A stretch of 64,000 nt of DNA from Haplodiscus bocki (Eukaryota), in contig OZ296654.1 of assembly GCA_965655095.1 (NCBI GenBank), forward strand, positions 76,756,001 to 76,820,000, written 5' to 3'. A program made the translations under genes and the position numbers. The notes beneath the pieces are model-generated. The model worked only from the letters and a program-made list of their open reading frames with translations, did not search any database and had not been told where the DNA came from. Below, piece by piece: positions 6,401 through 47,539 of this stretch; the stretch's first letter is position 1, and every line of letters begins with the position of its first letter.

Positions 6401-6519
6401 TCTGAATTATGTAAAAGCGTAAGGAAAACAAAAATGAATACAAACGAATACAAAAAATGATTTTTTGTATTGGGCGTTGTCTTCAGGCCCTGAAAACAAC
6501 TGGTGACTTTGTTGATAGT

Positions 6520-9688: not shown

Positions 9689-12600
9689 ACATCACAATGT
9701 CCAAAAGTCTGAATCTATTAACATAGCCGGAAAAAAAACGAAAAAAGGTTTCTCCAGTTTGAATAAAAAAGTTGACTTACAATTATTCTGTATGGTCAAA
9801 TTTCTCATAAAATCTAACAACGAATATGAGAAGGTTTACATTTTTTATCAACGTGATGGTTCTTCTCACTGTTTCAGGTCACTTCCTTCAATTTTACCTT
9901 TTCAAAGGAAAACTTAACCAATACTAACAATATTGGGCAAAACATGAAATGTTTTGGAAGAATTGGACCACCCAGAGCTCTTTCAGTCTTAACACACTTT
10001 GCAAAAAAATGCTTCATAGGCTGGAAGGAGTTGAGAGCCGGTCAAAACAAGTAATTTCAAATAGAGGAAGATTCAAGCTGCAAGTGAACAAAGTTATAGC
10101 CAAAATTTTCCTCAACGAAGCGTTTTGGCAACAACAGCTAAAAAGTTTGTTTCTTCAGAGCTCGACCAATTAAGGCAGTAAAAAATGAAACAACCGTATA
10201 CGGCGTGAAGTTTTAGCATGTAAGACAGACGAGCAGAAGTTGTCGCGAGAACTCAAAACTTCATATTAATGGCCACTTTCGAAGCACCAAAGGAGCTTAT
10301 CTTCAAAACCATCAGTGAAAAACGGCAAAAGCCTAATTTTGAGTTTTATTCAAGAGGAATGCAGGTCACATTCTTGGTCGACATGTAAGGAAAGCTGACA
10401 AACCAGAAAAATTGAACAATTAGCAAGGTGTAACCTAAAAAACCGCACCAAAAACCAGAAACAGAGGACAATTCCAAGGTTTTGAAAAGTCACCTTTTTC
10501 ATTGGTTGAATATAGGTTTGCGACCGAAAATTGATCTAGGAGCCAAAATAACGAAGTGTGGATTCGAAGTCGAAAAGTTATGTTGCTTTTTTTAATTTAC
10601 CATGAAGCACCAAAAAGCATTCTTTTTTCAAATAAATGAAGTATTCTTGCAACTTTGGCGAACTGTAGCTTTTTAGCGGCTTTTGAGCTGCAACACTTTT
10701 AGAAGAACCTGAAGCAAATGAAACATTTTTGGTGATGTTCTTGTGGGAGAACGGTAATTGTGGCGATTAAAAGGGTTCAAAATGTTTCCCAAAAAAAGAC
10801 AATATACTTCATTGGTTTTCCAAAAACTTTTGTTCCTCGACATGGCAAAACACCTTTGTGACAAAACATCCAGCTGAGAAATAATAACAGAAAAACACAG
10901 ACAAAACTTGGGCTCCTTCTTTTGTTGTCTGATCTATGACAAATCTCAAGCATGAGTGATTTTGACCAAAGTTTGTTGTGTTTCTCAAGAAGAGTGGCAA
11001 CATGGAGTTCAAAATACTAAAACAATCTAATTTGCAAACAGAGAGCCAGATTTGAACTAAGTTTTAGAACCCAGTGAGACATCAGCTAGTTGTTACAAAG
11101 AAAAGTTCAGTGGAGAGAAAAATTCAATCACACAAAAGATGCCACCAGGGTCCGAAGATACTCACAAACAACTTTAGCGGAATCACAAAATGGTTGAATC
11201 TTTGCGTCGCTGAAAGACAAAGCAAGTGTGTGACACTGCGTTGCTACCATATGGACAAAGCAATGGCTGATTTTACGTGTATATCGCAATGTCCGAAAAT
11301 TTGAATCTAATAACATAGCCAGAAAAAGAACAAAAAAGTGTTTCTACAGTTTAGTTAAAAAATGACTCACAAATGATCTGTTTGGACAAAATTTTCACAA
11401 GTTTTAACAACGAACATGAGGAAGTTTACATTCTTCAACAAGTTGATGGTTCTTCTCAATGTTTCAAGTCGCTCCTTTAATTTTCATCTTTTCAAAGTAA
11501 ACCATATGCAATACTAGCAAAATTCGGCAAAACTTAAAACACTTTCGAAGAATTGGACCACCCACAGCTCTCTCAGTATTAATATTCTTTGCGAAAAAGT
11601 TTCAAAGATTGTGAACGATGTAAGAACCGGTCAGAAAATGCAATTACAAAGAAAGAAAAGTTCAAGACGTCATTGAACAAGCTTGTAGCCAAACTTTTTT
11701 TGACGAAACATTTCTGCAACAACAGGTAAAAAACGAACCCATCACGGCTCGACTATTTCGAGGAAGTGAAAAATCAAACTTTCCTATCAGAGAAAAATCA
11801 TTAGTTTTAACTGTCTCTTTAGGTTTTTTTTTGGTTGAACTTTCAGAAGAATTGTAAAAATGAACAGTTCCAGTTTCTTTGAGTGAAGTTATAGCGTGGA
11901 AAATCGTTTTGAAAGATAGACGAAGCAAAGTTTTCGGCAGAACGCATAATTTCGTTTTATGGCCACTTTCGGAGCACCAACAGAGCTCATCTTCAAAACA
12001 TTGGTGAGAAGAGGCAAAGGTTTACTTTTGAGTTGTTTTCATGAGGAACGCAAGTCGGAATTTTGATCGAAATGTCAAGAGAGCTGAAAAACCAGAATGA
12101 TTGAAAAGTTAGCAATGTAAGACATAAATCACTTCACCAAAACCAGAAGCAGATCATAAATCAATTGTTCTAAGACGCCACTTCTTTTCATTTGTCGAAG
12201 GTGAATTTGCGACTGAAAAATGATCCGGAAGCCAAAATACGAAATTGTGAGTCGAAATCGAAGAGCTTCGTTGTTTTCCTTAACTTACCATAAAACATCA
12301 AAAAACCATTCAAATTTTACAAAACTGATGAAATCTTGCAACTTTGGCAAACTGTAGCTTTTTAGCGGCTTTTGAGCCGCAACACTTCAAGAAAACCTGA
12401 AGCAAAAGTAACATTTTTGGTGATGTCTTTCTGGAAGAAGGGGATTTGTGGCGATTAAAAGGGTTCAAAATGTTTCCCAGTAAAAGAGAATCTACTTCAT
12501 TTGTTTTCCAAAAACTTTTGTTCCTCGACATGGCAAAACACCTTTGTGACAAAACATCCAGCTAAGAAATAATAACAGAAAAACACAGACAAAACTTGGG

Positions 12601-15600
12601 CTCCTTCTTTTGTTGTCTGATCTTTGACAAAACTCAAGCATGAGTGATTTTGACCAAAGTTTGTTGTGTTTTTCAAGAAGATTGACAACATGGAGTTCAA
12701 ATTACTAAAACAAACTAACAGAGAGCCAGACTTGAACTATGTTTTAGAACCCAGTGAGACATCAGCTAGTTGTTACAAAGAAAAGTTCAGTGGAAAGAAG
12801 AATTCAATCACACAAAAGTTACCAGCAGAGTCCGAAGATACTCACAAACAACTTTAGCGGAATCACAAAATGGTTGAATCTTTGCGTCGCTGAAAGACAA
12901 AGCAAGTGTGTGACACTGCGTTGCTACCATCTGGACAAAGCAATGGCCGATGTTACGTGTATATCGCAATGTCCGAAAATTTGAGTCTAATAACATAGCC
13001 AGAAAAAGAACAAAAAAGTGTCTCTATAGTTTAGTTAAAAAATGACTCACAAATGAGTTGTTTGGACAAAATTTTCACAAGTTTTAACAACGAACATGAG
13101 GAAGTTTACATTCTTCAACAAGTTGATGGTTCTTCTCACTGTTTCAAGTCGCTCCTTCCATTTTCATCTTTTCAAAGTAAACCGTATGCAATACTAGCAA
13201 ATTTCGGCAAAACTTAAAACACTTTCGAAGAATTGGACCACCCACAGCTCTCTCAGTTTTAATAGACTTTGCGAAAAAGATTCAAAGATTGTGAACGATG
13301 TAAGAACCGGTCAGAAAATGTAATTACAAAGAAAGAAAAGTTCACGCCGTCATTGAACAAGCTTGTAGCCAAACTTCTTTTGACGAAACATTTCTGCAAC
13401 AACAGGTAAGAAACGAACCCTTCACGGCTCGACTATTTCGAGGAAGTTAAAAATCAAACTTTCCTATCAGAGAAAAATCATTACTTTTAACTGTCTCTTT
13501 ATGTTTTTTTTGGTTCAACATTCAGAACATTTGTAAAAATGAACAATTCCAGTTTCTTTGAGTGAAAATATAGCGTGGGAAATCTTTTTGAAAGATAGAC
13601 GAAGCGAAGTTTTCGGCAGAACGCATAATTTCCTTTTATGGCCACTTTCGAAGCAATAACAGAACTCATCTTCAAAACAACGGTGAGAAGAGGCAAAGGT
13701 TCACTTTTGAGTTGTTTTCATGAGGAACGCAAGTCGGATTTTTGATCGAAATGTCAAGAGAGCTGAAAAACCAGAATGATTGAAAAGTTAGCATTGTCTG
13801 ACCTAAATTACTTCACCAAAACCAGAGCAGATCACAAATCATTTGTTCTAAGACGCCACTTCTTTTCATTTGTCGAAGGTGAATTTGCAACTGAAAAATG
13901 ATCCGGATTCCAAAATACGAAATTGTGAATCAAAATCGAAGAGCTTCGTTGTTTTCCTTAACTTACCATAAAACATCAAAAAACCAATCAAATTTTATAA
14001 AATTGATGAAATCTTGCAACTTTGGCAAACTGTAGCTTTTTAGCGGCTTTTGAGCCGCAACACTTCAAGAAAACCTGAAGCAAAAGTAACATTTTTGGTG
14101 ATGTCTTTGTGGAAGAATGGGATTTGTGGCGATTAAAAGGGTTCAAAATGTTTCCCAGTAAAAGAGAATCTACTTCATTGGTTTTCTAAAAACTTTTGTT
14201 CCTCGACATGGCAAAACACCTTTGTGACAAAACATCCAGCTAAGAAATAATAACAGAAAAACACAAACAAAACTTGGGCTCCTTCTTTTGTTGTCTGATC
14301 TATGACAAAGCTCAAGCATGAGTGACTTTGACCAAAGTTTGTTGTGTTTTTCAAGAAGAGTGACAACATGGAGTTCAAATTACTAAAACAAACTAACAGA
14401 GAACCAGACTTTAACTAAGCTTTAGAACCCAGTGAGACATCAGCTAGTTGTTACAAAGAAAAGTTCAGTGGAAAGAAGAATTCAATCACACAAAAGATAC
14501 CACCAGAGCCCGAAGATACTGACAAACAACTTTAGCGGAATCACAAAGTGGTTGAATCTGTGCGTCGCTGAAAGACAAAGCAAGTGTGTGACTCTGTGTT
14601 GCTACCATATGGACAAAGCAATGGCTGATATTACGTGTATATCGCAATGTCCGAAAATTTGAGTCTAATAACGTAGCCAGAAAAAGAACAAAAAAGTGTT
14701 TCTATAGTTTAGTAAAAAATGACTCACAAAAGATCTGTTTGGACAAAATTTTCACACGTTTTACCAACGAACATGAGGAAATTTACATTCTTCATCAAGT
14801 TGATGGTTTTTCTTACTGTTTCAAGTTGCTCCTTTCGTTTTCATCTTTTCAAAGTAAACCCCAAGCAATACTAGCAAAATTCGGCAAAACTTAAAACACT
14901 TTCGAAGAATTGGACCACCCACAGCTCTCTCAGTATTAATGGACTTTGCGAGAAAGTTTCAAAGATTGTGAACGATGTAAGAACCGGTCAGAAAATGTAA
15001 TTACAAAGAAAGAAAAGTTCAAGCCGTCATTGAACAAGCTTGTAGCCAAACTTTTTTTGACGAAACATTTCTGCAACAACAGGTAAAAAACGAACCCTTC
15101 ACGGCTCGACTACTTCGAGGAAGTGAAAAATCAAACTTTCCTATCAGAGAAAAATCATTAGTTTTAACTGTCTCTTTAGGTTTTTTTTGGTTGAACTTTC
15201 AGAAGAATTGTAAAAATGAACAGTTCCAGTTTCTTTGAGTGAAGTTATAGCGTGGAAAATCGTTTTGAAAGATAGACGAAGCAAAGTTTTCGGCAGAACG
15301 CATAATTTCGTTTTATGGCCACTTTCGGAGCACCAACAGAGCTCATCTTCAAAACATTGGTGAGAAGAGGCAAAGGTTTACTTTTGAGTTGTTTTCATGA
15401 GGAACGCAAGTCGGAATTTTGATCGAAATGTCAAGAGAGCTGAAAAACCAGAATGATTGAAAACTTAGCAATGTATGACCTAAATTACTTCACCAAAACC
15501 AGAAGCAGATCACAAATCAATTGTTCTAAAACGCCACTTCTTTTCGTTTGTGGAAGATGAAATTGCGACTGAAAAATGATCCGGGAGCCAAAATACGAAA

Positions 15601-18600
15601 TTTTGAGTCGAAATCGAAGGGCTTCATTGTTTTCCTTAACTTACCATAAAACATCAAAAAACCACACAATTTTCATAAAAATGATGAAATCTTGCAACTT
15701 TGGCAAACTGTAGCTTTTACGCGGCTTTTGAGCTGCAACACTTCCAGAAGAATCTGAAGCAAATGAAACATTATTGGTGATGTCTTTGTGGAAGAAGGGG
15801 ATTTCTGGCGGTTAAAAGGGTTCAAAATGTTTCCCAGTAAAAGACAATCTACTTCATTGGTTTTCCAAAAACTTTGGTTCACCGACATTGCAAAACACCT
15901 TTGTGACAAAACATCCAGCTAACAAACCATAACTGAAAAACACAGACAAAACTTGGGCTTCTTCTTTTGTTGTCTGATCTATGACAAATCTCAAGCATGA
16001 GTGATTCTGATCAAAGTTCGTTGTGTTTTTCAAGAAGAGTGACAAAATGGAGTTCAAATTACTAAAACAAACAAATTTGCAAACAGAGAGCCAGATTTGA
16101 ACTTAGTTTTAGCACCCGGTGAGACATCAGCTAGTTGTTACAAAGAAAAGTTCAGTGGATAGAAAAATTCAATCACACAAAAGATACCAACAGAGTCCGA
16201 AGATACTGACAAACAACTTTAGCGGAATCACAAAATGGTTGAATCTTTGCGTCGCTGAAAGACAAAGCAAGTGTGTGACACTGCGTTGCTACCATATGGA
16301 CAAAGCAATGGCTGATATTACGTGTATATCGCAATGTCCAAAAAATTGCGTCTAATAACATAGCCAGAAAAAGAACAAAAAAGTGTTTCTACAGTTTAGT
16401 TAAAAAATGACTCACAAATGATCTGTTTAGACAAATTTTCCACAAGTTTCAACAGAGAACATGAGGAAGTTTACATTCTTCATCAAGTTGATGGTTCTTC
16501 TCACTGTTTCAAGTCGCTCCTTTCATTTTCATCTTTTCAAAGTAAACCCTAAGCAATACTAGCAAAATTCGGCAAAAATTAAAACACTTTTGAAGAATTG
16601 GACCACCCACAGCTCTCTTAGTATTAAAAGACTTTGCGAAAAGGTTTCAAAGGTTGTGAACAATGTAAGAACCGGTCAGAAAATGTAATTACAAATGAAG
16701 AAAAGTTCAAGCCGTCATTGAACAAGTTTGTAGCCAAACTTTTTTTGACGAAACAATTCTGCAACAACAGGTAAAAAACGAACCCTTCACGGCTCGACTA
16801 TTTCGAGGAAGTGAAAATTCAAACTTTCCTATCAGAGAAAAATCATTAGTTTTAACTGTTTCTTTAGGTTTTTTTTGGTTGAACTTTCAGAAGAATTGTA
16901 AAAATGAACAATTCCAGTTTCTTTGAGTGAAGTTATAGCGTGGAAAATCTTTTTGAAAGATAGACGAAGCGAAGTTTTCGGCAGAACGCATAATTTCCTT
17001 TTATGGCCACTTTCGAAGCACCAACAGAGCTCATCTTCAAAACATTGGTGAGAAGAGGCAAAGGTTTACTTTTGAGTTGTTTTCATGAGGAACGCAAGTC
17101 GGAATTTTGATCGAAATGTCAAGAGAGCTAAAAAACCAGACTGATTGAAAAGTTAGCAATTTATGACCTAAATTACTTCACCAAAACCAGAAGCAGATCA
17201 CAAATCAATTGCTCTAAAACGCCACTTCTTTTCATTTGTCGAAGGTGACTTTGCAACTGAAAAATGATCCGGAAGCCAAAATACGAAATTTTGAGTCGAA
17301 ATCGAAGGGCTTCGTTGTTTTCCTTAACTTACCATAAAACATCAAAAAACCATTCAATTTTTATAAAAAAGATGAAATCTTGCAACTTTGGCAGACTGTT
17401 GCTTTTTAGTGGCTTTTGAGCTGCAACACTTCAAGAAGAACCTGAAGCAAACGAAACATTATTGGTGATGTCTTTGTGGAAGAAGGGGATTTCTGGCGAT
17501 TAAAACTGTTCAAAATGTTTCCCAGTAAAAGACAATCTACTTCATTGGTTTTCCAAAAACTTTTGTTCACCGACATTGCAAAACACCTTTGTGACAAAAC
17601 ATCCAGCTAACAAACCATAACTGAAAAACACAGACAAAACTTGGGCTTCTTCTTTTGTTGTCTGATCTATGACAAATCTCAAGCAAGAGTGATTCTGATC
17701 AAAGTTCGTTGTGTTTTTCAAGAAGAGTGACAACATGGAGTTCAAATTACTAAAACAAACAAATTTGCAAACAAAGAGCCAGATTTGAACTTAGTTCTGG
17801 CACCCAGTGAGACATCAGCTAGCTGTTACAAAGAAAAGTTCAGTGGATAGAAAAATTCAATCACACAAAAGATACCACCAGAGTCCGAAGATACTGACAA
17901 ACAACTTTAGCGGAATCACAAAGTGGTTGAATCTGTGCGTCGCTGAAAGACAAAGCAAGTGTGTGACTCTGCGTTGCTACCATATGGACAATGCAATGGC
18001 TGATAATACGTGTGTATCGCAATGTCCCAAAAATTTGAATCTAATAACATAGCCAGAAAAAAAACAAAAAGATGTTTCTCTAGTTTAGTTGAAAAATGAC
18101 TCACAAATGATCTGTTTGGACAAAATTTTCACAAGTTTTAACAACCAACACGAGGAAGTATACATTCTTCATCAAGTTGATGGTTCTTCTCACTGTTTCA
18201 AGTCGCTCCTTTCATTTTCATCATTTCAAAGTAAACCCTAAGCAATACTAGCAAAATTCGGCAAAACTTAAAACATTTTCGAAAAATTGGACCACCCACA
18301 GCTCTCTCAGTATTAATAGACTTTGCGAAAAAGTTTCAAAGATTGTGAGCGATGTAAGAACCGGTCAGAAAGTGTAATTACAAATGAAGAAAAGTCCAAG
18401 CCGTCATTGAACAAGTTTGTAGCCAAACTTTTTTTGACGAATCATTTCTGCAACAACAGGTAAAAAACGAACCCTTCACAGCTCGACAATTTCGAGGAAG
18501 TGAAATTACAAATTTTCTTATCAGAGAAAAATCATTAGTTTTAACTGTCTCTTTATGTTTTTTTTGGTTCAACTTTCAGAAGTTTTGTAAAAATGAACAA

Positions 18601-30600: not shown

Positions 30601-33600
30601 TTTTGATCGACATGTCAAGAGAGCTGAAAAACGAGAATGATTGAAAAGTTAGCAATGTATGACCTAAATTACTTCACCAAAACCAGAAGCAGATCACAAA
30701 TCATTTGCTCTAAAACGCCACCTCTTTTCATTTGTCGAAGGTGAATTTGCAACTGAAAAATGATCCGGAAGCCAAAATACGAAATTTTGAGTCGAAATCG
30801 AAGGGCTTCGTTGTTTTCCTTAACTTACCATAAAATATCAAAAAACCATTCAATTTTTATAAAAAGGATGAAATCTTGCAACCTTGGCAAACTAAAGCTT
30901 TTTAGCGACTTTTGAGCTGCAACACTCCAAGAAGAACCTGAAGCAAATGAAACATTTTGGGTGATGTCCTTGTGGAAGAACGGGATTTGTGGCGAGTAAA
31001 ATGGTTCAAAATGTTTCCCAGTAAAAGACAACCTACTTCATCGGTTTTCCAAAAATTTTTGTTCCCCGACATTGCAAAACACCTTTGTGACAAAACATCC
31101 AGCTAACAAACATTAACTGAAAAACACAGACAAAACTTGGGCTTCTTCTTTTGTTGTCTGATCTATGACAAATCTCAAGCATGAGTGATTCTGATCAAAG
31201 TTCGTTGTGTTTTTCAAGGAAAGTGACAACATGGAGTTGAAATTACTAAAACAAACTAATTTGCAAACAGAGAGCCAGATTTGAACTAAGCTTTAGAACC
31301 CAGTGAGACATCAGCTAGTTGTTACAAAGAAAAGTTCAGTGGAGAGAAAAATTCAATCACACAAAAGATACCACCAGAGTCCGAAGATACTGACAAACAA
31401 CTTTACCGGAGTCACAAATTGGTTGAATCTGTGCGTTGCTGAAAGACAAAGCAAGTGTGTGACTCTGCATTGCTACCATATGGACAAAACAATGGCTGAT
31501 AATACGTGTATATCGCAATGTCCGAAAATTTGAATCTAATAACATAGCCAGAAAAAAAACAAAAAAATTTTTTTCTAGTTTAGTTAAAAAATGACTCACA
31601 AAAGATCTGTTTGGACAAAATTTTCACAAGTTTTAACAACGAACATGAGGAAACTTACATTCCTCATCAAGTTGATGGTTCTTCTTACTGTTTCAAGTTG
31701 CTCCTTTCGTTTTCATCTTTTCAAAGTAAACCCTAAGCAATACTAGCAAAATTCGGCAAAACTTAAAACACTTTCGAAGAATTGAACCACCCACAGCTCG
31801 CTCAGTATTAACAGACTTTGCGAAAAAGTTTCAAAGATTGTGAACGATGTAAGAACCGGTCAGAAAATGTAATTACAAATAAAGAAATGTTCAAACCGTC
31901 ATTGAACAAGTTTGTAGCCAAACTTTTTTTGACGAAACATTTCTGCAACAACAGGTAAAAAACGAACCCTTCACGGCTCGACTATTTCGATTAAGTGAAA
32001 AATCAAACTTTCCTATCAGAGAAAAATCATTAGTTTTAACTGTGTATTTATGTTTTTTTGGTTGAACTTTCAGAAGAATTGTAAAAATGAACAATTCCAG
32101 TTTCTTTGAGTGAAGTTATAGCGTGGGAAATCTTTTTGAAAGATAGACGAAGCGAAGTTTTCGGCAGAACGCATAATTTCTTTTATGGCCACTTTCGAAG
32201 TACCAACAGAACTCATCTTCAAAACATCGGTGAGAAGAGGCAAAGGTTTACATTTGAGTTGTTTTTATGAGGAATGCAAGTCGGATTTTTGATCGAAATG
32301 TCAAGAGAGCTGAAAAACTAGAATGATTGAGAAGTTAGCAATGTATGACCTAAATTACTTCACCAAAACCAGAAGCAGATCACAAACCAATTGTTATGAA
32401 ACGCCACTTCTTTTCACTTGTCGAAGTTGAATTTGCCACTGAAAAATGATCCGGAAGCCAAAATACGAAACTTTTAGTCGAAATCGAAGGGTTTCGTTGT
32501 TTTCCTGAACTTACCATAAAACATCAAAAAACCATTCAACTTTTATAAAAATGATGAAATCTTGCAACTTTGGCAAACTGTAGCTTTTTAGCGGCTTTTG
32601 AGCTGCATGACTTCAAGAAGAACCTGAAGCAAATGAAATATTTTTGGTGATGTCTTTGTGGAAGAAGAGGATTTGTGGCAATTAAAAGGGTTCAAAATGT
32701 TTCCCAGTAAAAGGCAATCTACTCCATCGGTTTTCCAAAAACTTTTGTTCCTCGACATTGCAAAACACTTTTGTGACAAAACATCCAGCCAACAAATAAT
32801 AACAGAAAAACACAGACAAAACTTGGGTTCTTTCTTTTGTTGTCTGATCTATGACAAAAGTCAAGCATGAGAGATTCTGATCAAAGTTTGTTGTGTTTAT
32901 CAAGAAGAGTGACAACATGGAGTTCAAATTACTAAAACAAACTAATTTGCAGACAGAGAACCAGATTTGAACTAAGTTTTAGCACCCAGTGAGACGTCAG
33001 CTAATTGTTACAAAGAAAACTTCAGTGGAGAGAAAAATTCAACCACACAAAAGATACCACCAGAGTCCGAAGGTACTGACAAACAACTTTAGCGGAATCA
33101 CAAAATGGTTGAGTCTGTGCGTCGCTGAAAGACAAAGCAAATTTGTGACTCTGAGTTGGTACCATACAGACAAACCATTGTTTGTTTATACCTGTAGATC
33201 ATAATGTCCGAAAGTTTGAATCTATCAACATAGATAGAAAAAAAAGAAAAAATTTTTTCTCCAGTTTGGTAACAAATTGACTGACAAGTGATCTGAAGGG
33301 AGACTTTTTTCTCAATTTTTAACAACGAATAAGAGGAAACTTACATTTTTCATCAAAATGATGGTTCTTCTCACTGTTTTATGTCCCTTCCTCCATTTTT
33401 GTCATTTCAAAGGAAAACCTAACCAATACTACCAATAATCGGCAAAAGCTAAAATAAATGCGAAGATTTTGTCCAACCAAAGCTCTCTCAGTCTTAACGA
33501 GTTTTCCGAAAAAAAAGGATTCATGGAGTGTGAACGATATAAAAACGGGTCAGAAAAAGTAATTACAAAAAGACGAAAGTTCAAGCGGTAAGTGAACAAG

Positions 33601-36600
33601 GTTGTACCCAAAATCTTTGTCAACGAAGCATTCCTGCAACAACAGTTAAAAAATTGAGTCTTTCAGGGATCAAATAATGAAAGCTCTGAAAATTGAAACG
33701 ACCTTCTTAGGAAAATTCGCCGTTTTTAACCGTCTGTTTATGCTTTTTTGCTGAAAATTCAGAAGTAATGTAAAAATGAAAGAGTGCAGTTTCTTTGAGT
33801 GAAATTTTAGCAAGGGAGTTTTTTGGAAAATAGACGAACAAAAGCTGTCACGAGCCCGCAAACCTACCTGTTTTTGGCCACTTTCGAGGCACCAAAGGAG
33901 CTCATCATGGAAACCATGAGTGAAAAACGACAAAAATTTAATTTTGAATCTTCTCCATAAGGAATGCAAGTCACATTTTTGATTGAAATTTCAGGAATGC
34001 TGAGAAACCAGAAAAACTGAAAAGTTAGCAAGGTGTAACCTAAAATACCGCACCAAAATCCAGAAACAGATGACAAATCCAATGTTCTAAAAAGTCACCT
34101 TTTTCATTGGTTGAATATAGGTTTGCGACCGAAAATTGATCTAGGAGCCAAAATAACGAAGTGTGGATTCGAAGTCGAAAAGTTATGTTGCTTTTTTTAA
34201 TTTACCATGAAGCACCAAAAAGCATTCTTTTTTTCAAATAAATGAAGTATTCTTGCAACTTTGGCGAACTGTAGCTTTTTAGCGGCTCTTGAGCTGCAAC
34301 ACTTTTAGAAGTATCTGAAGCAAATGAAACAATTTTGGTGATGTTCTTGTGGAAGAAGGGGATTTGTGGCGATTAAAAGGGTTCAAAATGTTTCCCAGTA
34401 AAAGACAATCTACTTCATCGGTTTTCCAAAAACTTTTGTTCCTCGACATTGCAAAACACCTTTGTGACAAAACATCCAGCCAACAAATAATAACAGAAAA
34501 ACACAGACAAAACTTGGGTTCTTTCTTTTGTTGTCTGATCTATGACAAATCTCAAGCATGAGTGCTTCTGATCAAAGTTTGTTGTGTTTTTCAAAAAAAC
34601 TGGCAACATGGATTTCAAAATACTAAAACAAACTGATTTACAATCGGAGAACCAGATTTGAATTAAGCTTTAAAACCAAGTAAGACGTCGGCTAATTGTC
34701 ACAAAGAAAACTTCAGTGGAGAGAAAAATTCAACCACACAAAAGATACCACCAGAGTCCGAAGATACTAACAAACAACTTTAGCGGAATCACAAAATGGT
34801 TGAGTCTGTGCGTCGCTGAAAGACAAAGCAAATTTGTGACTCTGAGTTGGTACCATACAGACAAACCATTGCTTGTTTATACCTGTAGATCATAATGTCC
34901 GAAAGTTTGAATCTATCAACATAGATGGAAAAAAAAAATTTTTCTCCAGTTTGGTAACAATTTGACTGACAAGTGATCTGAAGGGAGACTTCGTTCTCAA
35001 ATTTTAACAACGAATAAGAGGAAACTTACATTTTTCATCAAAATGATGGTTCTTCTCACTGTTTTAAGTCCCTTCCTCCATTTTTGTCATTTCAAAGGAA
35101 ACCCTAACCAATACTACCTACCAATAATCGGCAAAAGCCAAACTAATTGCGAAGAATTTGTCCACCCAAAAGCTCTCTCAGTCTTAACGAGTTTTCCGAA
35201 AAAAAAAGATTCATGGAGTGTGAACGATATAAAAACGGGTCAGAAAAAGTATTTACAAAAAGACGAAAGTTCAAGCGGTAAGTGAACAAGGTTGTACCCA
35301 AAATCTTTCTCAACGAAGCATTCCTGCAACAACAGTTAAAAAATTGAGTCTTTCAGGGATCAAATAATGAAAGCACTGAAACTTGAAACGACCTTCTTAG
35401 GAAAATTCGACGTTTTTAACCGTCTGTTTATGCTTTTTTGCTGAAAATTCAGAAGTAATGTAAAAATGAAAGATTGCAGTTTCTTTGAGTGAAATTTTAG
35501 CAAGGGATTTTTTTGGAAAATAGACGAACAAAAGCTGTCACGAGACCGCAAACCTACCTGTTTTTGGCCACTTTCGAGGCACCAAAGGAGCTCATCCTGG
35601 AAACCATGAGTGAAAAACGACAAAAATTTAATTTTGAATCTTCTCCATAAGGAATGCAAGTCACATTTTTGATTGAAATTTCAGGAATGCTGAGAAACCA
35701 GAAAAACTGAAAAGTTAGCAAGGTGTAACCTAAAATACCGCACCAAAATCCAGAAACAGATGACAAATCCAATGTTCTAAAAAGTCACCTTTTTCATTGG
35801 TTGAATATAGGTTTGCGACCGAAAATTGATCTAGGAGCCAAAATAACGAAGTGTGGATTCGAAGTCGAAAAGTTATGTTGCTTTTTTTAATTTACCATGA
35901 AGCACCAAAAAGCATTCTTTTTTCCAATAAATGAAGTATTCTTGCAACTTTGGCGAACTGTAGCTTTTTAGCGGCTCTTGAGCTGCAACACTTTTAGAAG
36001 AACCTGAAGCAAATGAAACAATTTTGGTGATGTGCTTGTGGAAGAACGGTAATTGTGGCGATTAAAAGGGTCCAAAATGTTTCCCAAAAAAAGACAATAT
36101 ACTTCATTGGTTTTCCAAAAACTTTTGTTCCTCGACATGGCAAAACACTTTTGTGACAAAACATCCAGCTAACAAACAAAAACTGAAAAACACAGACAAA
36201 ACTTGGGCTCCTTCTTTTGTTGTCTGATCTATGACAAATCTCAAGCATGAGTGATTCTCATCAAAGTTTGTTGTGTTTTTCAAGAAGAGTGTCAACATGG
36301 AGTTCAAATTACTAAAACAAACTAATTTGCAAACAGAGAGCCAGATTTGAATTAGGTTTTAGAACCCAGTGAGACATCAGCTAGTTGTTACAAAGAAAAG
36401 TTCAGTGGAGAGAAAAATTCAATCACACAAAGGATACCACCAGAGTCCGAAGATACTGACAAACAACTTTAGCGGAATTACAAAATGGTTGAATCTTTGC
36501 GTCGCTGAAAGACAAAGCAAGTGTGTGACTCTGCTTTGCTACCATATGGACAAAGCAATGGCTGATAATACGTGTATATCGCAATGTCCAAAAATTTGAA

Positions 36601-39600
36601 TCTAATAACATAGCCAGAAAAAAAATGAAAAAATGTTTCTCTAGTTTAGTTGAAAAATGACTCACAAATGATCTGTTTGGACAAAATTTTCACAAGTTTT
36701 AACAACGAATATGAGGAAGTTTGCATTTTTCATCAAAATGATGGTTTTTCTCACTGTTTCAAGGCCCTCCCTCCAATTTGATCATTTCACATGAAAACTT
36801 AGTCAATACCAACAGTATTGGCAAAAATTAAGGTATAAATGAAGAATCGGACCACCTAACGCTCCTTCAGCCTTAACTCACTTTGCAAGAGGAGCTTCAT
36901 AAAGCTTGAACGATTTGAAAACAAGTCAGAATGCGTAATAGCAAATAGAGAAAAATTCAAGCGGTAAGTGAACAAATTTGTAGCCAAAACTTTTTTCAAC
37001 GAAGCATTTCTGCAACAACAGGAAAAAACAATGACCCCTTTATGAGTCGATATTTGACGGAAGTGAAAATTCAAACAACTCTCTCAGAGAAACATCGTTA
37101 GTTTCAACTGTCGGTTTTGAACTATCCGTTTTTGAAAGATAGATGAAGCGAAGTTTTCGGGAGAACGCAAAAATACCTTTTTTTGGCCACTTTAGAGGCA
37201 CCAAAAGAGCTCATCTTCGAAAACATTAGTGAAAAAAAACTCCAAAGTTCTAAAATTGAATGGTTGTCATAAGGAAGGCAAGTTGCATTTTTGATCGAAA
37301 TTTCAGGAATGCTGAGAAACCAGAAGGATTGGAAAAGTTGGCAATGTATAATCTAAATTACCGCACCAAGAACCAGAAGCAGGTGACAATTATTTGTACT
37401 AAAAATGTCAACTTTTTCATTGGCCGAAGGTAGGTTTGCGACTGAAAAGTATTCTGGAAGGCAAAAAAAATGAAGACTTCAGTCGAAGTTGAAGAGTTTT
37501 GTTGTTTTCTTTAATCTCCGCAAAGCACCAAAAAACCCGTCAATTTTCCAATATGTGAAGTATTTTTGCAACTTTGGCGAACTTTAGTTTTTAGCGGCTT
37601 TTGAGCTGCAAAACTTTTAGAAGAAGCTGAAGCAAATGAAACAATTTTGGTGATGTTCTTGTGGAAGAACGAGATTTGTGGCGATTAAAAAACTTGAACG
37701 TGTTTCCAAGTAAAAGACAATTTACTTCATCGGTTTTCCAGAAGTTTTTGTTCCTCGACATTGCAAAACACCTTTGTGACAAAACATCCAGCTAACAAAC
37801 AAAAACAGAAAAACACAGACAAAACCTGGGCTCCTTCTTTTGTTGTCTGATCTATGACAAATCTCAAGCTTGAGTGATTCTGATCAAAGTTTGTTGTGTT
37901 TTTCAAGAAGAGTGTCAACATGGAGTTCAAATTACTAAAACAAACTAATTTGCAAACAGAGAGCCAGATTTGAATTAGGTTTTAGAACCCAGTGAGACAT
38001 CAGCTAGTTGTTACAAAGAAAAGTTCAGTGGAGAGAAAAATTCAATCACACAAAAGATACCACCAGAGTCCGAAGATACTGACAAACAACTTTAGCGGAA
38101 TTACAAAATGGTTGAATCTTTGCGTCGCTGAAAGACAAAGCAAGTGTGTGACTCTGCTTTGCTACCATATGGACAAAGCAATGGCTGATAATACGTGTAT
38201 ATCGCAATGTCCAAAAATTTGAATCTAATAACATAGCCAGAAAAAAAATGAAAAAATGTTTCTCTAGTTTAGTTGAAAAATGACTTACAAATGATCTGTT
38301 TGGACAAAATTTTCACAAGTTTTAACAACGAATATGAGGAAGTTTTCATTTTTCATCAAAATGATGGTTTTTCTCACTGTTTCAAGGCCCTCCCTCCAAT
38401 TTGATCATTTCACATGAAAACTTAGTCAATACCAACAGTATTGGCAAAACTTAAGGTATAAATGAAGCATCGGACCACCTAACGCTCCTTCAGCCTTACC
38501 TCACTTTGCAAGAGGAGCTTCATAAAGCTTGAACGATTTGAAAACAAGTCAGAATGCGTAATAGCAAATAGAGAAAAATTCAAGCGGTAAGTGAACAAAT
38601 TTGTAGCCAAAACTTTTTTCAACGAAGCATTTCTGCAACAACAGGAAAAAACAATGACCCCTTTATGAGTCGATATTTGACGGAAGTGAAAATTCAAACA
38701 ACTCTCTCAGAGAAACATCGTTAGTTTCAACTGTCGGTTTTGAACTATCCGTTTTTGAAAGATAGATGAAGCGAAGTTTTCGGGAGAACGCAAAAATACC
38801 TTTTTTTGGCCACTTTAGAGGCACCAAAAGAGCTCATCTGCGAAAACATTAGTGAAAAAAAACTCCAAAGTTCTAAAATTGAATGGTTGTCATAAGGAAG
38901 GCAAGTTGCATTTTTGATCGAAATTTCAGGAATGCTGAGAAACCAGAAGGATTGGAAAAGTTGGCAATGTATAATCTAAATTACCGCACCAAGAACCAGA
39001 AGCAGGTGACAATTATTTGTACTAAAAATGTCAACTTTTTCATTGGCCGAAGGTAGGTTTGCGACTGAAAAGTATTCTGGAAGGCAAAAAAAATGAAGAC
39101 TTCAGTCGAAGTTGAAGAGTTTTGTTGTTTTCATTAATCTCCGCAAAGCACCAAAAAACCCGTCAATTTTCCAATATGTGAAGTATTTCTGCAACTTTGG
39201 CGAACTTTAGCTTTTTAGCGGCTTTTGAGCTGCAAAACTTTTAGAAGAAGCTGAAGCAAATGAAACAATTTTGGTGATGTTCTTGTGGAAGAACGAGATT
39301 TGTGGCGATTAAAAAACTTGAAAGTGTTTCCAAGTAAAAGACAATCTACTTCATCGGTTTTCCAAAAACTTTTGTTCCTCGACATTGCAAAACACCTTTG
39401 TGACAAAACATCCAGCCAACAAATATTAACAGAAAAACACAGACAAAACTTGGGTTCTTTCTTTTGTTGTCTGATCTATGACAAATCTCAAGCATGAGGG
39501 CTTCTGATCAAAGTTTGTTGTGTTTTTCAAAAAGAGTGACAACATGGATTTCAAAATACTAAAACAAACTGATTTACAATCGGAGAACCAGATTTGAATT

Positions 39601-42600
39601 AAGCTTTAAAACCGAGTAAGACGTCGGCTAATTGTTACAAAGAAAACTTCAGTGGAGAGAAAAATTCAACCACTCAAAAGATACCACCAGAGTCCGAAGA
39701 TACTGACAAACAACTTTAGCGGAATCAAATAATGGTTGAACCTGTGCGTCGCTGAAAGACAAAGCCAGTTTCTGACTCTGCGTCGGTACCATGCGGACAA
39801 ACCAATGGTTGTTGATACCTGTAGATCATAATGTCGAAATGTTTGAATCTATCAACAAAGACAGAAAAGAAACAAAAAATTTTTCTCCAGTTTTGGTAAC
39901 AACTTGACTGACAAACGACATGCAGGGAGAATTCTTTCTCAAATTTTAACAACGAATATGAGGAAGTTTGCATTTTTTATCAAAATGACTGTTTTTCTCA
40001 CTGTTTCAAGGCCCTCCCTCCATTTTGATCACTTCACATGCAAACTATAGTCAATACCAACAATATTGGGCAAAACTTAAGGTATAAATGAAGAATCGGA
40101 CCACCTAACGCTCTTTCAGCCTTAACTCACTTTGCAAGAGGAGCTTCATAGAGTTTGAACGATATAAAAACAAGTCAGAATACGTAATAGCAAATAGAGA
40201 AAAATTCAAGCGGTAAGTGAACAAGTTTGTAGCCGAAACCTTTTTCAACGAAGCATTTCTGCAACAACAGGAAAAAACAATGACCCCTTTACGAGTAGAT
40301 ATTTGACGGAAGTGAAAATTCGAACAACCCTCTCTGAGAAACATCGTTAGTTTCAACTGTCTCTTTATGTTTTTTTGGTTGAATTTCCAAAAGAATTGTA
40401 AAAACGAATGATTCCATTTTCTTCGTGTGAAGTTTCATTGAGGGAGTTATTTTTGAAAGACAGATGAAACGAAATTTTCGGGAGAACGCAAAAATACCCT
40501 TTTTTGGCCACTTTAGAGGCACCAAAAGAGCTCATCTTCGAAAACATTAGTAAAATACGCCAAAGTTCTAAAATTGAATGGTTGTCATAGGGAATGCAAG
40601 TTGCATTTTTTATCGAAATTTCAGGATTGCTGACAAACCAGAAGGATTGGAAAAGTTGGCAATGTATAATCTAAATTACCGCACCAAGAACCAGAAGCAG
40701 GTGACAATTATTTGTACTAAAAATGTCAACTTTTTCATTGGCCGAAGATAGGTTTGCGACTGAAAAGTATTCTGGAAGGCAAAAAAAATGAAGACTTCAG
40801 TCGAAGTTGAAGAGTTTTGTTGTTTTCTTTAATCTCCGCAAAGCACCAAAAAACCCGTCAATTTTCCAATATGTGAAGTATTTCTGCAACTTTGGCGAAC
40901 TTTAGCTTTTTAGCGGCTTTTGAGCTGCAAAACTTTTAGAAGAAGCTGAAGCAAATGAAACAATTTTGGTGATGTTCTTGTGGAAGAACGAGATTTGTGG
41001 CGATTAAAAAACTTGAAAGTGTTTCCAAGTAAAAGACAATCTACTTCATCGGTTTTCCAAAAACTTTTGTTCCTCGACATTGCAAAACACCTTTGTGACA
41101 AAACATCCAGCCAACAAATATTAACAGAAAAACACAGACAAAACTTGGGTTCTTTCTTTTGTTGTCTGATCTATGACAAATCTCAAGCATGAGGGCTTCT
41201 GATCAAAGTTTGTTGTGTTTTTCAAAAAGAGTGACAACATGGATTTCAAAATACTAAAACAAACTGATTTACAATCGGAGAACCAGATTTGAATTAAGCT
41301 TTAAAACCGAGTAAGACGTCGGCTAATTGTTACAAAGAAAACTTCAGTGGAGAGAAAAATTCAACCACTCAAAAGATACCACCAGAGTCCGAAGATACTG
41401 ACAAACAACTTTAGCGGAATCAAATAATGGTTGAACCTGTGCGTCGCTGAAAGACAAAGCCAGTTTCTGACTCTGCGTCGGTACCATGCGGACAAACCAA
41501 TGGTTGTTGATACCTGTAGATCATATTGTCGAAATGTTTGAATCTATCAACAAAGACAGAAAAGAAACAAAAAATTTTTCTCCAGTTTTGGTAACAACTT
41601 GACTGACAAACGACATGCAGGGAGAATTCTTTCTCAAATTTTAACAACGAATATGAGGAAGTTTGCATTTTTTATCAAAATGACTGTTTTTCTCACTGTT
41701 TCAAGGCCCTCCCTCCATTTTGATCACTTCACATGCAAACTATAGTCAATACCAACAATATTGGGCAAAACTTAAGGTATAAATGAAGAATCGGACCACC
41801 TAACGCTCTTTCAGCCTTAACTCACTTTGCAAGAGGAGCTTCATAGAGTTTGAACGATATAAAAACAAGTCAGAATACGTAATAGCAAATAGAGAAAAAT
41901 TCAAGCGGTAAGTGAACAAGTTTGTAGCCGAAACCTTTTTCAACGAAGCATTTCTGCAACAACAGGAAAAAACAATGACCCCTTTACGAGTAGATATTTG
42001 ACGGAAGTGAAAATTCGAACAACCCTCTCTGAGAAACATCGTTAGTTTCAACTGTCTCTTTATGTTTTTTTGGTTGAATTTCCAAAAGAATTGTAAAAAC
42101 GAATGATTCCATTTTCTTCGTGTGAAGTTTCATTGAGGGAGTTATTTTTGAAAGACAGATGAAACGAAATTTTCGGGAGAACGCAAAAATACCCTTTTTT
42201 GGCCACTTTAGAGGCACCAAAAGAGCTCATCTTCGAAAACATTAGTAAAATACGCCAAAGTTCTAAAATTGAATGGTTGTCATAGGGAATGCAAGTTGCA
42301 TTTTTTATCGAAATTTCAGGATTGCTGACAAACCAGAATGATTGGAAAAGTTGGCAATGTATGATCTAAATTACCGCACCAAGAACAAGAAGCAGATGAC
42401 AATTCTTTGTACTAAAAATGTCAACTTTTTCATTGGCCAAAGGTAGGTTTGCGTTTGAAAAGTATTCTGGAAGGCAAAAAATGAAGACTGCATTCGAAGT
42501 TGAAGAGTTTTGTTGTTTTCTTTAACCTCCGTAAAGAACCAACTAACCCGTCATTTTTCCAAAATGTGAAATATTTTTGCAACTTTGGCAAAATGTAGCT

Positions 42601-44872
42601 TTTTGGGGGCTTTTGAGCTGCAAAAATATAGGAAGAACCTGATATAATTGAAACAAATTCGATGATGTTCTTGTGAAAGAACGGGATCTGTTGCTATAAA
42701 AAACGTTTCAAGTGCTTTCCAGTAGTATACAATCTACTTCGTCAGTTTTCCAAAAACTTTTGTTCTTTGACCTCGCAAAACGCCTTGCTGACAAAACATC
42801 GAGCGAGCTAGAAATTAGAATAAAAACACAGTCAAAACATAGGTTGCTTTTCTTTTTCTCTAGTCTATGAAAAATGACAATCAATAGTAATTCTGAACAA
42901 AGTTTGTTGTGTTTTTCAAGAAATGTGACAACATGGAGTTCCAAATACTAAAAGACACTAATTTACAATCCGAGAGGCAGTTTCGAACTCAGTTTCGAAA
43001 CCGAGTGAGACATCAGCTAATTTTTGCAAGGAACACTTCAATGGAGGGCAAAACTCAATCTCACAACAAATGGTAGCAGACTCCCAAGATGCAGACAAAC
43101 AACTATAGCGGAATCACAAAGCGGTTGAACCTGTGAATCGCTGAAAGGCAAAAGAAGTGTAAGACTGTGCGTTGCTACCATATGGACAAACCAATGGCTG
43201 ATGATACTTGTATATTGCAATGTCCGAAGGTTTTATTCTATTAACATAGCCAGAAAACAAACAAAAAAAGATTTGTCTAGTTTGGTTAAAAAAATGACTT
43301 AAAAATGATATGTATGGAAAAATTTCTCGCAAATTTCAACAACGAACATGAGGCAGTTTACATTTCTCACTGTTTCAAGTCCCTCTCTCCATTTTTGTTA
43401 TTTGAAAGGAAACCTTAACAAACAACAACAATGTTCGGCAAAACTTGAAACACTTTTGAAGACTTGGGCCAGCGATAGCTCTCTCAGTCTTAACAACCTT
43501 TGCAAGAAAAAAGATTCATAGAGTGTGAACGATATAAGAACCGGTCAGAAAAGAAATTACAAAAAGAGGAAGGTTCAAGCCGTAAGTGAACAAGGTTGTC
43601 TCCAAACTTTTTTAACGAAACATTTCTGCAACGACAAGAAAAAAAATGACCCCTTCACGGCTCGACTAATGAAAGGAATTGAAAATTCAAATACCTTTCT
43701 CAGAAAAGTCGTTGTTTTAAACTGTCTCATCATGTTTTTCTGCTGAGAATTCAGAAGAATTGTAAAAAAGAACGATTCCAGTTTCTTTGAGTGAAGTTTC
43801 AGCGTGGGAGTCATTTTTGGAAGATGGACGAACAGAAGCTGCCAAGAGACCGCAGAAATACCTTTTTTGCCCACCTTCGAGGCACCAAAAGAGCTCATCT
43901 TCGAAAACATCCAGGAAAAACGGCAGAAGTTTAAATTTCAATGGTCGTTATAAGGATTGCAGGATGCATTTTTGATCGAAGTTCAAGAATGCTGAGAAAC
44001 CAGAATGATTGGAAAAATTGGCAAGGTATGATCTAAATTACCGCAACAAAAACCAGAAGCAGTTGACAATTCTATGTTCCAGGGTCAACTTTTTCTTTGG
44101 TCGAAGGTAGGTTTGCGTTTGAAAAGTGTTCTAGAAGGCAAAAAAAGAAGATTGGAGTCGAAGTTGAAGAGTTATGTTGTCTTCTTTAACTTACCATAAA
44201 GCACCAAAAAACCCGTCATTTTTCCAATATGTGAAATAATTTGCAACTTTGGAAAAATGTAGCTTTTTAGGGGCTTTTGAGCTGCAAAAACTTAGGAATA
44301 ACCTGACATAATCGAAACATTTTTGGTGATGTTCTTGTGACAGAACGGGATTTGTTGCTATAAAAAACGTTTCAAGTGCTTTCCAGTAGGAGACAATCTA
44401 CTTCGTCAGTTTTCCAAAAACTTTTGTTCTTTGACCTTGCAAAACGCCTTGGTGACAAAACATCGAGCAAGCTAGAAATTAGAATAAAAACACAGTCAAA
44501 ACATAGGTTGCTTTTCTTTTTCTCTAGTCTATGAAAAATCACAATCAATAGTATTTCTGAACAAAGTTTGTTGTGTCTTCAAAAAAGTGACAACATGGAG
44601 TTCCAAAACCTAAAAAACACTAACTTACAATCAAAGATGCAGATTTGAACTAAGTTCAAAACCGAGTGAGACATCTGCTGCTAGTTACTACAAAGAAAAG
44701 TTCGTTGGAGAGCAAAAATCAACCCCACAACATATGGCAACAGACTCAGAAGATACTGACAAACAACTATAGCAGAATCATATTAATGGTTGAAGCTCTG
44801 CGTCACTGAAAGACAAAGAAAGTATGTGAGTCTGCGTCGGTACCATATCGACAAACCAATGGGTGTTGATAC
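9689..44872 (+). repeat. Tandem array (macrosatellite) of 21 head-to-tail ~1.69-kb units
   Basis: A marker of the form gtgagacatcagct recurs at about 11074, 12754, 14432, 16119, 17807, 19493, 21181, 22866, 24551, 26243, 27929, 29615, 31303, 32989, 34680, 36369, 37992, 39615, 41310, 43005 and 44665. Spacing is mostly 1678-1695 bp, 1623 bp for two deleted copies and ~1660 bp for the last. The same short ORFs recur with this period in the ORF track. Confidence 0.98.
11340..12995 (+). pseudogene. Representative array unit: decayed C-terminal half of a Polinton-type pPolB
   Basis: Collinear remnants, in shifting frames: VDGSS 11442 (VGGPS); KFK(P/T)..NK 11658; FLQQQ 11711; QRKIISFN 11788 (QKKIDCF); SLSE..RG..IDE 11876; (E/G)APTEL-IFKTLV 11971 (EVPEEL..IFKNTLV); TPLLF 12175; LANCSF 12344 (motif B LANSSY); AI..KMF 12451; FVPRH(C/G) 12517 (FFPRTC); DLNxVLEPS 12729 (GLNKRVLEQS); TNNFS 12844; VAT-YGQ 11240/12920 (VATYEQ); PKI-ESNNI 12973 (PKRIVESDGI). 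Several have counterparts in the in-window pPolB at 62.7-64 kb (TPLL, SNSSYG, FPRTC, VATYEQ). Confidence 0.7.
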
Positions 44873-45449
44873 GCTCAAGTCCAGTTGTTGGAGAAAAAAA
44901 AACGCAAAATCCCTCAACAAATTGTGTGTGAACTAAAAATTTTATTAAGATTCAAATCTACTGATTGTAAAATTTCTCTATACGTTACAGTTACTGCTAA
45001 TGAGCACCTTTGCAAGGTTTTCAAAAATTTATATTGCAATTTCTCAGTCTCAGTCAATTCTTTTCCTGTTCCTCGCGGAATGAGCTGCAGCGGAGAAAAA
45101 ACTTTCTTCTCAAGCGAAAATCAAAACTGGGACATTATCTTCTAGTATGGACGACTCCAAAATCTTCTCCCAAGAAAATCACGTTGAGTGTACTCGAAAT
45201 GCAACAGCTACCGTCCATTGAGAGAACTGATCAAAAATAAGAGATCTCGTGCCGACAAAAGACAATTCATATTGATAGATGAGACAAATGTGTATTTTTC
45301 ACAGCTGATACAGACAATTTAGTCATTGTTCTATACAGTATTTGCAACATTTTGTCCCGCAAAGAATGGGACAGCAATATATAACTGGCAAATAACCAGA
45401 AGCACTTGGCGAAAACAGTTTATTTATTGAGTTACAGTGACCTTTTTGA

Positions 45450-45850
45450 AAGCTGTGCATTGTATTGGATCAAACAACAGTTCCTAATTGGAACAATTTT
45501 CATCAAGGAAGGATGTTTTTATTCCAGTGAACTCGTCTCGGTCTTTTTCGCTCCTAAAACTGTCATTTGAACGCAATAGTGTCCGCAAAAGTTTTTGAGT
45601 AAAGTATGGTACTGTTGGAACGAAAACAACTCTTAACATAAGTTGGACCAAAAACTTTCACGAGCGGGTTCATTAGTTAAGGAAACTTGTACTCGGACTT
45701 TTTGTTATAGCATTACAAAGTATGCAGACTACATGCAAAACAACACGATGCTGTTAAAGCAGTACTTTCACATTCTGGCACAAAAGATGGGTTGCTGATG
45801 CAAGATTGGACGATGTCCAAAGTCATGCTTGCCTGCTCACTTGAATGGAC
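45450..45850 (+). pseudogene. Polinton accessory ORF, copy 1 (possible DEDD/RNase H-like fold)
   Basis: CIVLD..., FIKE..., FFAPK and a C-terminal CPKV remnant (tgtccaaagtc ~45825). It resembles the adjacent copy 2. Confidence 0.35.
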
Positions 45851-45914
45851 TAAAAATTTGCTTTTACGTGAAAGTGTATTTTCGTTTCAATTTTTATTTC
45901 TGTCGATTTTTGAA

Positions 45915-47480: not shown

Positions 47481-47539
47481 AAATGCCTAACAAATAATGA
47501 AAGTATTTTTACTTCTTGTCCCTGGACATTAGTTTTATC

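Follow-up and report, generated by a model that had tools for sequence, protein, structure and literature searches.

The tandem array that fills 35 kb of the 64,000-nucleotide window analysed here (Haplodiscus bocki, contig OZ296654.1) is a single-locus repeat whose 1.69-kb unit ends in a broken fragment of a Polinton accessory gene, ORF193, and very probably arose when the edge of a dead Polinton was duplicated and then expanded neutrally by local unequal exchange. The first-pass annotation had read the monomer as a dead Polinton DNA polymerase (pPolB) gene, an origin which we reject on the basis of six kinds of test. Its wider claim of a satellite made from a dead Polinton gene survives in that the array does hold dead Polinton coding sequence, but the gene is an accessory one and accounts for about a fifth of the monomer.

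The array and its layers of expansion

The array extends from 9688 to 44873 on the forward strand and comprises 21 head-to-tail units (starting at 9688, 11280 and so forth up to 43211) with periods of 1,592-1,695 bp and pairwise identities of 75-99%. Its longest stop-to-stop frame does not exceed 129 aa, in agreement with the initial description of 21 tandem units without a long ORF. A genome-wide count yields 21 copies at one locus, the sole one found in the 1.5-Gb assembly: 15 of 15 genome matches to a 25-nt pattern from the array, as well as every match to a 1.35-kb array query, fall inside it, and searches of the assembly reaching sources above about 65% identity found no copies elsewhere. 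The array thus shows several hallmarks of a satellite derived from a mobile element, that is, (i) head-to-tail monomers of kilobase scale, (ii) monomers that are non-coding and diverge neutrally, with no third-position bias among units, and (iii) homology to such an element, here over about 300 of 1,690 nt. The high copy number and several loci of classical satellites are not found.

Units 2-14 (11280-33194, + strand) form a young block of 92-99% identity, in which the closest relatives are mostly neighbours (2/3, 4/5, 6/7, 8-11 and 12-14) and identity drops from 94.6% for adjacent units to 92.2% for units 12 apart. Identity comparison assigns units 15-20 (33195-43210, +) to older layers: units 15 and 16 are 95% identical to each other, while units 17-20 are a mosaic whose neighbours share 99-100% identical segments. 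Unit 1 (9688-11279, +) is likewise a mosaic, with one segment 97% like unit 16 and a 3′ part 96% like unit 6, and unit 21 (43211-44873, +), which runs into the flank, is the most diverged, being 77-82% identical to the others. It is because of this layered pattern, with neighbours most alike, that we favour unequal exchange; replication-based repeat gain would give a similar pattern.

The 99-100% identical neighbouring segments might partly reflect assembly duplication. That the array as such is an assembly artefact, however, is hardly conceivable, considering that its units differ by 1-25% with a tree-like structure and that contigs from four out of four sequencing runs contain unit-specific sequence and cover 29-30 of 30 bins. 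Contigs of all four runs also bridge the array edge at ~44870. The runs provide short contigs from two samples of one study, and it is the assembly that gives the copy number. Over units 13-16, the read depth is several times that of the flank and is not readable as copy number.

ORF193 and the adjoining Polinton

Homology to intact elements places a broken 193-aa accessory gene, ORF193 (beginning MAYNTT in intact elements), at 44578-45030 (+). The portion before ~44873 recurs in each unit as its last ~300 nt, at the 3′ end, and the remainder is single-copy in the flank. A profile built from the 21 units matches ORF193 in six clade-2 elements (E 4e-11 to 1e-8, against a best E of 1.6 for the reversed control); of 19 further loci, 18 give an ORF193 match as well (E 9e-21 to 1e-5). 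With a frameshift-aware ORF193 profile, the segment at unit nt 1392-1670 scores 133 (z 20.5 against 30 shuffles), and, taken singly, 18 of the 21 units score above every one of 21 shuffles. When other genes of the element were compared with the units, using 20 proteins in a frameshift-aware manner and 503 frames from 30 loci with tblastn, only ORF193 stood out. A homologue search with ORF193 returned, among the matches listed, only relatives at 85-97%.

Mismatches between the units and intact ORF193 are distributed over the codon positions as 56/107, 32/107 and 61/108 (p 1.5e-4), a pattern which argues for coding descent of the segment. Among units 2-14 the corresponding values are 43/107, 28/107 and 30/108, and a third-position excess is absent. 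Four of twelve frame-breaking indels in the segment are common to all 21 units, counts sensitive to the underlying alignment, whose identity is about 60%. These shared lesions therefore support the earlier proposal that a gene died first and was amplified afterwards, but the gene in question is ORF193 and not pPolB. A second, internal ORF193-like copy, discerned by eye near unit nt 800-960, was discarded: the z value of 2.2 arose at another position, P was 0.4-0.6, and self-comparison gave 24 bits against 28-29 in controls.

The structural model of ORF193 (pLDDT 62.5) has Pur-alpha as its best match (Foldseek E 0.023, prob 0.99; VIA Z 5.9, rmsd 3.6, 86 aligned), and 28-55% of the members of its Atlas neighbours carry PF02229 (score 0.82), whereas a Pfam search of ORF193 did not match PC4. 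These scores, all of which lie in the lead range, weakly suggest a predicted PUR/PC4-like fold. The model would then resemble PC4/PUR/Whirly-type nucleic-acid-binding domains, with binding by ORF193 itself being only a prediction.

Unit 21 continues into the rest of ORF193 and from there into a decayed host Polinton (44870-51775, +), which is collinear with intact clade-2 elements at 61-63% DNA identity over 7 kb. The alignment of the flank to intact Polintons starts at 44870, that is, at the array edge, and follows the intact gene order, with remnants of a packaging ATPase (46712-47428, +; intact relative narrowly missing the cut-off for Pox_A32, E 1.3e-4), an integrase (47863-48689, +; relative matching rve, E 2.7e-9), a 271-aa frame aligned to intact elements (48727-49411, +), which by its position may be the minor capsid protein, a major capsid protein (49864-51232, +; relative resembling double-jelly-roll clusters, score 0.98, with the family on 24-30% of members) and a protease (51234-51603, +; relative weakly matching Peptidase_C5, E 0.009). 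The ATPase and protease identities come via intact relatives with scores below curated cut-offs. Integrase, ATPase, capsid and protease are shared with Polintons and adintoviruses as outlined in part of PMC8502044, and intact relatives of the host element carry a PolB frame (24% to clade-1 pPolB, E 1e-10). In contrast, the copy beside the array is decayed and truncated, a search to its left revealed no polymerase arm, and neither flank, each searched alone, contains a long inverted repeat. The left flank of the array (5730-9071, unstranded) belongs to another old dispersed repeat family with 57-63% identity to five loci; it appears LINE-like by eye only and gave no Pfam hit.

Polymerase signal and the first part of the monomer

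For the pPolB hypothesis we used intact frames of two clades from this genome as well as profiles including outside homologues. The same tests readily detect the remnants of clade-1 pPolB at 54546-54968 (-), which was recognized by translated similarity and served as positive control, and of clade-2 pPolB at 62722-63985 (-), yet remain at shuffle level on the units. The latter remnant, which the first-pass annotation had correctly recognized (43% identity to an intact 1,460-aa frame, E 2e-81), likely stems from a separate Polinton copy and is not the source of the array. In tblastn, 12 clade-1 and 19 clade-2 pPolB frames reached best E values of 0.16 and 0.15 on the units (shuffles 0.049-0.7), and a clade-2 DNA profile gave a best E of 6.6 in the array as opposed to 3e-193 at 63 kb. 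Frameshift-aware profiles yielded z values of -1.4 to 1.9, with unit means of 34-41 against 35-40 in controls and 139-346 and 80-98 for 300-nt windows of the real remnants. The frameshift-aware translated search with shuffled controls, proposed at the outset as a check, gave no significant collinear pPolB match and a better one to ORF193 (z ~20). Moreover, the unit profile leaves pPolB unmatched in 18 loci carrying it and in the clade-1 loci searched, and in intact elements pPolB lies about 5 kb from ORF193 on the opposite strand.

The case for the polymerase had been built on about 15 motif remnants translated by hand. All eight that were looked up do exist as translations in unit 2, but they were not confirmed as pPolB remnants above chance, and their order does not come with polymerase spacing: in our own mapping onto intact clade-2 pPolB, one of seven intervals agrees within 10%. 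This is TPLL to motif B, where the reported 169 versus 174 nt is accurate; the others measure 547 versus 387, 186 versus 135, 173 versus 432, 227 versus 156, 176 versus 123 and 53 versus 45 nt in unit and pPolB, respectively. DLNxVLEPS and VAT-YGQ fall inside the stretch aligning to ORF193, the claimed C-terminus overlaps that gene, and the DTDS motif has no match in the unit. What speaks for a decayed + strand pPolB gene, perhaps of an unsampled clade, is a residual signal to the C-terminal half at unit nt ~230-700 (a single unit gives the best domain, of 6.7 bits with iE 0.038, against a shuffle maximum of 3.6; means 0.86 versus -0.88 in shuffles; best of a second test 3.5 versus -0.2 bits), together with the poorer preservation of the units relative to the 63-kb positive control. 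The position of the signal within the unit, however, does not fit the claimed motif order, and neither translated similarity, motif spacing nor DNA similarity is that of a pPolB pseudogene, leaving such a descent most improbable.

The first ~1.34 kb of the monomer (43211-44550 in unit 21, unstranded) is devoid of pPolB signal, and for ~80% of the monomer no source match was found, though collinear flank DNA of similar age aligns easily; the unit is therefore not a simple slice of known elements. Six-frame Pfam searches of unit 2, unit 21 and the left flank gave 0 of 18 hits, and a recurring minus-strand open frame at 43578-43937 matched only array units below E 0.4. Unit nt 99-432 matches a self-similar inverted stretch of one locus (L057:7478-7813, E 1e-6) that is unmatched among the other loci.

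Possibly, though we consider this tentative, the whole monomer derives from a rearranged or extinct Polinton subfamily, with its first ~1.34 kb consisting of inverted pieces of ORF193 neighbours. Unit nt ~610-826 resembles, in inverted orientation, the 3′ part of a neighbouring 226-aa frame (P 0.007 for all units, 3e-5 for six divergent units and 0.004 for unit 21; each belongs to a set of 16 tests, with 40 shuffles as control), and a second neighbour is matched, again inverted, by unit nt ~1170-1240 in 6 of the 12 best rows (E 0.3-2.6). With nhmmer, however, these matches did not recur (best E 0.8, against 0.3 for the reversed control), they are absent at the protein level (z -0.4; mean 38 versus 34), conflicting and overlapping hints of similar strength exist, and the gene orientation is the standard one in each of the 19 closer loci examined. 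Such a subfamily is compatible with expansion from the edge of a dead Polinton, and would fill in the first ~1.34 kb. It is tempting, if rather far-fetched, to speculate that this stretch, for which the assembly has no second locus, is all that survives of an extinct Polinton lineage with a different arrangement, kept as a multi-copy fossil by 21-fold amplification; if so, the layers of the array would date the death and rearrangement of that element.

Origin of the array and relation to known satellites

We propose that a Polinton would have inserted and decayed, that its left arm would then have been lost or rearranged, that a stretch at the edge of the already dead element would have been duplicated head to tail, and that repeated local unequal exchange would have expanded it neutrally, with a later burst giving rise to units 2-14. 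The order of events, the exchange mechanism and the absence of function are what we infer from these patterns. A functional array, e.g., a centromeric satellite or a source of small RNAs directed against the many Polintons of this genome, might be considered in view of the abundance of Polinton polymerases there (first-look candidates numbering 10,958 and 8,817, with 98 and 150 matches scored) and the expansion of units 2-14 as a single burst. It is very unlikely, however, given one locus of 35 kb with units up to 25% diverged, and an identity of only 59-64% between the Polinton piece and intact copies, which is generally too low for sequence-guided silencing. The array likely represents ordinary local amplification of old mobile-element debris.

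The supposition that such a satellite had not been described does not hold for the kind as a whole, since Polinton-related satellites are in print. According to the available passages of PMC8268682, CgiSat52 of Crassostrea gigas has a 1,656-bp monomer with Repbase similarity to DNA/Polinton, and one linkage group holds 17 of these monomers (6 in a second assembly). It is thus like the array in monomer size, Polinton similarity and single-chromosome habit, whereas the array, unlike CgiSat52 in those passages, can be traced to a particular gene and to a host element next to it. LmiSat34-299 of Locusta migratoria is, as stated in part of PMC4935994, homologous to Polinton coding sequence, as is our array, with a monomer of 299 bp versus 1.69 kb. 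The portions consulted of a review on TE-derived satellites (PMC9659126) include ORF-derived cases such as chicken CR1 ORF2 and LINE-1 ORF2, which share with the array the tandem amplification of a mobile-element piece, coding parts included; Polinton or Maverick has 0 occurrences there. A Polinton-like sequence next to arrays is mentioned in an excerpt of PMC5983683, which is not a precedent, and the sections seen of PMC7598501, PMC7859515 and PMC12694884 yielded none. By title or start of abstract, no polymerase-derived satellite appears in the literature surveyed, which is not a claim of absence.

The significance of the array is modest. No new biology is opened, as its kind has precedents and nothing points to a function. 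A further lesson is that, in decayed, AT-rich DNA, short motifs pieced together visually over frameshifts can pass for a polymerase. We regard the array as a nascent long-monomer satellite that still lies beside its source, with the gene of origin, the breakpoint and the successive expansion layers all legible.

A tandem array at one locus

The 35-kb tandem array of 21 units described in the first-pass annotation is confirmed: self-comparison of the window confines repeated sequence to ∼9.7–44.9 kb (main spacings 1,623–1,695 bp), an anchor search places the start of the first of the 21 units at 9688 and that of the last at 43211, with periods of 1,592–1,695 bp, and, in line with the absence of a long ORF described there, no stop-to-stop frame within the array exceeds 129 aa. 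The window belongs to a contig of 96 Mb in a genome of 1.5 Gb, in which (i) a 1.35-kb unit query returned 21 candidates, all in the array, (ii) a 25-nt pattern, with one mismatch allowed, gave 15 matches, again all in the array (reversed control, 0), and (iii) 33 of the 34 matches to a left-edge query lay in or at the array, the remaining one being a 38-nt match; all three queries are insensitive to distant array copies. Contigs of four runs (two samples of one study, possibly the source) cover 29–30 of 30 bins across 30–49.5 kb and bridge the array's right edge in every run, but cannot fix copy number. One contig of run X4 (second sample), at a depth of 14.7, connects the right flank with the first part of unit 15 (44910 to 33237), 15 other letters intervening; it may reflect another haplotype of the array or else a misjoin.

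Origin of the monomer

A profile of the 21 units matches one gene of clade-2 elements (one of two Polinton polymerase groups found in the genome), the 193-aa accessory gene ORF193, in six elements (E 4e-11 to 1e-8), in one nearby remnant and, of 19 additional loci, in 18. The match occupies unit nt ∼1340–1680, reaches 113 bits at the DNA level (controls ≤28) and a z of 20.5 at the protein level, and exceeds the best of 21 shuffles in 18 of 21 units taken singly. Second codon positions show the fewest mismatches to intact ORF193 genes (56/107, 32/107 and 61/108 at the three positions; p 1.5e-4), and this fixes homology as well as reading frame. The evidence shows that about a fifth of the monomer derives from ORF193. 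The protein collection holds 3,322 relatives of this gene, and all of the 120 listed are unnamed; because its medium-confidence structure model resembles Pur-alpha and its Atlas neighbours carry PC4, we regard a putative single-stranded-DNA-binding role as a lead only.

The first-pass annotation had instead read the monomer as a dead Polinton/adintovirus DNA polymerase (pPolB) gene. Scored matches in the genome number 98 for PF03175 (clade 1) and 150 for the open frame of 63.4–63.9 kb (clade 2), many of the latter within frames of about 1,460 aa. The pPolB remnant at 63 kb, also named in the first-pass annotation, is a true relative of the clade-2 polymerases (43% identity, E 2e-81), which are 24% identical to the clade-1 group (E 1e-10) and were not recognised by PF03175 in hmmscan. 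The array, however, scores at shuffle level in translated and frameshift-aware tests. When the longest frames from 12 clade-1 and 19 clade-2 loci were searched against it, E values reached 0.16 and 0.15 at best (15 shuffles, 0.049–0.7; reversed and complemented controls, 0.19–0.32); four full-length pPolBs in a frameshift-aware aligner gave means of 41–44 versus 40–45 for controls (5 of 21 units); and a clade-2 pPolB DNA profile reached E 6.6 in the array versus 3e-193 at 63 kb, although the units are more decayed than this positive control. Profile-to-profile scoring of the units with four polymerase profiles, one built from 85 proteins with outside homologues included, yielded z −1.4 to 1.9. 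With five polymerase profiles, unit by unit, 0–3 of 21 units exceed the best of 21 shuffles; on 300-nt windows of real remnants the same profiles give 139–346 (clade 2) and 80–98 (clade 1) over a background of ∼36–40. A faint hmmsearch excess for the C-terminal half of pPolB at unit nt ∼230–700 (6.7 bits, iE 0.038, shuffle maximum 3.6; in another test, 3.5 versus −0.2 bits) counts against rejecting a polymerase origin, but is gone in profile-to-profile and per-unit profile scoring. Polymerase motif spacing fits in one of seven intervals, and two supposed motif remnants, DLNxVLEPS and VAT-YGQ, fall inside the ORF193 match. Descent of the monomer from a decayed pPolB gene is not supported.

Unit nt 1–1340 has no Pfam hit and, in the unit-query search, which is blind to distant copies, no DNA counterpart outside the array. 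The strongest hint, an inverted match of nt ∼610–826 to the frame next to ORF193 (one of 64 comparisons; P 3e-5), did not recur with nhmmer or in protein-level tests. Unit nt 99–432 match (E 1e-6) an inverted, self-similar stretch close to a clade-1 element (L057:7478–7813).

Flanks and history of the array

From the array's right edge at 44870 onwards, intact clade-2 elements can be aligned to two decayed segments of the window (44870–47041, 63%; 47263–51775, 61%), which keep the intact gene order: the remainder of ORF193, several small frames, then ATPase, integrase, a 271-aa frame (from its position, a putative minor capsid), major capsid and protease (adintovirus hallmark genes as given in PMC8502044). 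Intact elements have pPolB on the strand opposite to ORF193 and ∼5 kb upstream of it; a pPolB-bearing arm was sought on the array's left side and not found, and 5.7–9.1 kb there is a member of another old repeat family. Other insertions are the likely source of the pPolB remnants at 54.5 and 63 kb; clade-1 remnants on the minus strand span 54546–56197 and 59905–60312 (polymerase pieces, E 5e-13 and 4e-4; match to a 269-aa clade-1 frame, E 5e-6). Just past the decayed element that adjoins the array lies a diverged 84-bp minisatellite (52623–54141; at least 10 copies, 61–70% to a reference copy), and one more ORF193 remnant lies 12 kb past the window's right end. Positions 4094–4336 match, at 67% identity, a region carrying FLYWCH that lies a few kb upstream of the window (L036:4229–4469), possibly a MULE-type element.

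Of the 12 frame-breaking indels in the ORF193 piece, four occur in every one of the 21 units, and the variation between units lacks the third-position excess seen, by contrast, among intact ORF193 genes (66/108 versus 23/107 at second positions). On these sequence grounds the ORF193 copy had likely died before duplication began; the proposed order of death and then amplification is supported, albeit for ORF193 and not for pPolB. Unit 21 is the most diverged (77–82%), units 15–16 and 17–20 form older layers, units 2–14 a younger block (92–99%) whose closest relatives are mostly neighbours, and segments resembling unit 16 and unit 6 make up the mosaic unit 1. Tandem arrays under repeated local unequal exchange are expected to show such a layered, neighbour-alike pattern, and the unit identities suggest that this array may have grown in that way.

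Polintons in the genome and related satellites

The genome is very rich in Polintons, with 10,958 and 8,817 first-look candidates for the two polymerase clades, many having uninterrupted 1,200–1,500-aa frames. Two clade-1 polymerase frames of 98.6% identity face each other across ∼12 kb in which small frames are mirrored, forming a large palindromic Polinton (L050–L051; G000:C4:88368991–88384201). Equal-scoring same-strand polymerase pairs 16–23 kb apart (G000:C1:107066023/107082220 and C2:82642491/82665401) suggest whole Polintons in tandem. Between two of their accessory genes, intact clade-2 Polintons contain an internal short tandem repeat (L038, 3100–3735 of the oriented stretch).

The Pacific oyster satellite CgiSat52 (1,656 bp) is similar to Polinton and is present as 17 monomers on a single linkage group (PMC8268682), the locust satellite LmiSat34-299 shows homology to coding sequence of Polinton (PMC4935994), and satellites from ORFs of other mobile elements are listed in PMC9659126. 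CgiSat52 resembles the present array, with its periods of 1,592–1,695 bp and all query matches but the 38-nt one at a single locus. Polinton-related satellites are already on record, and the array adds another case of a known kind.
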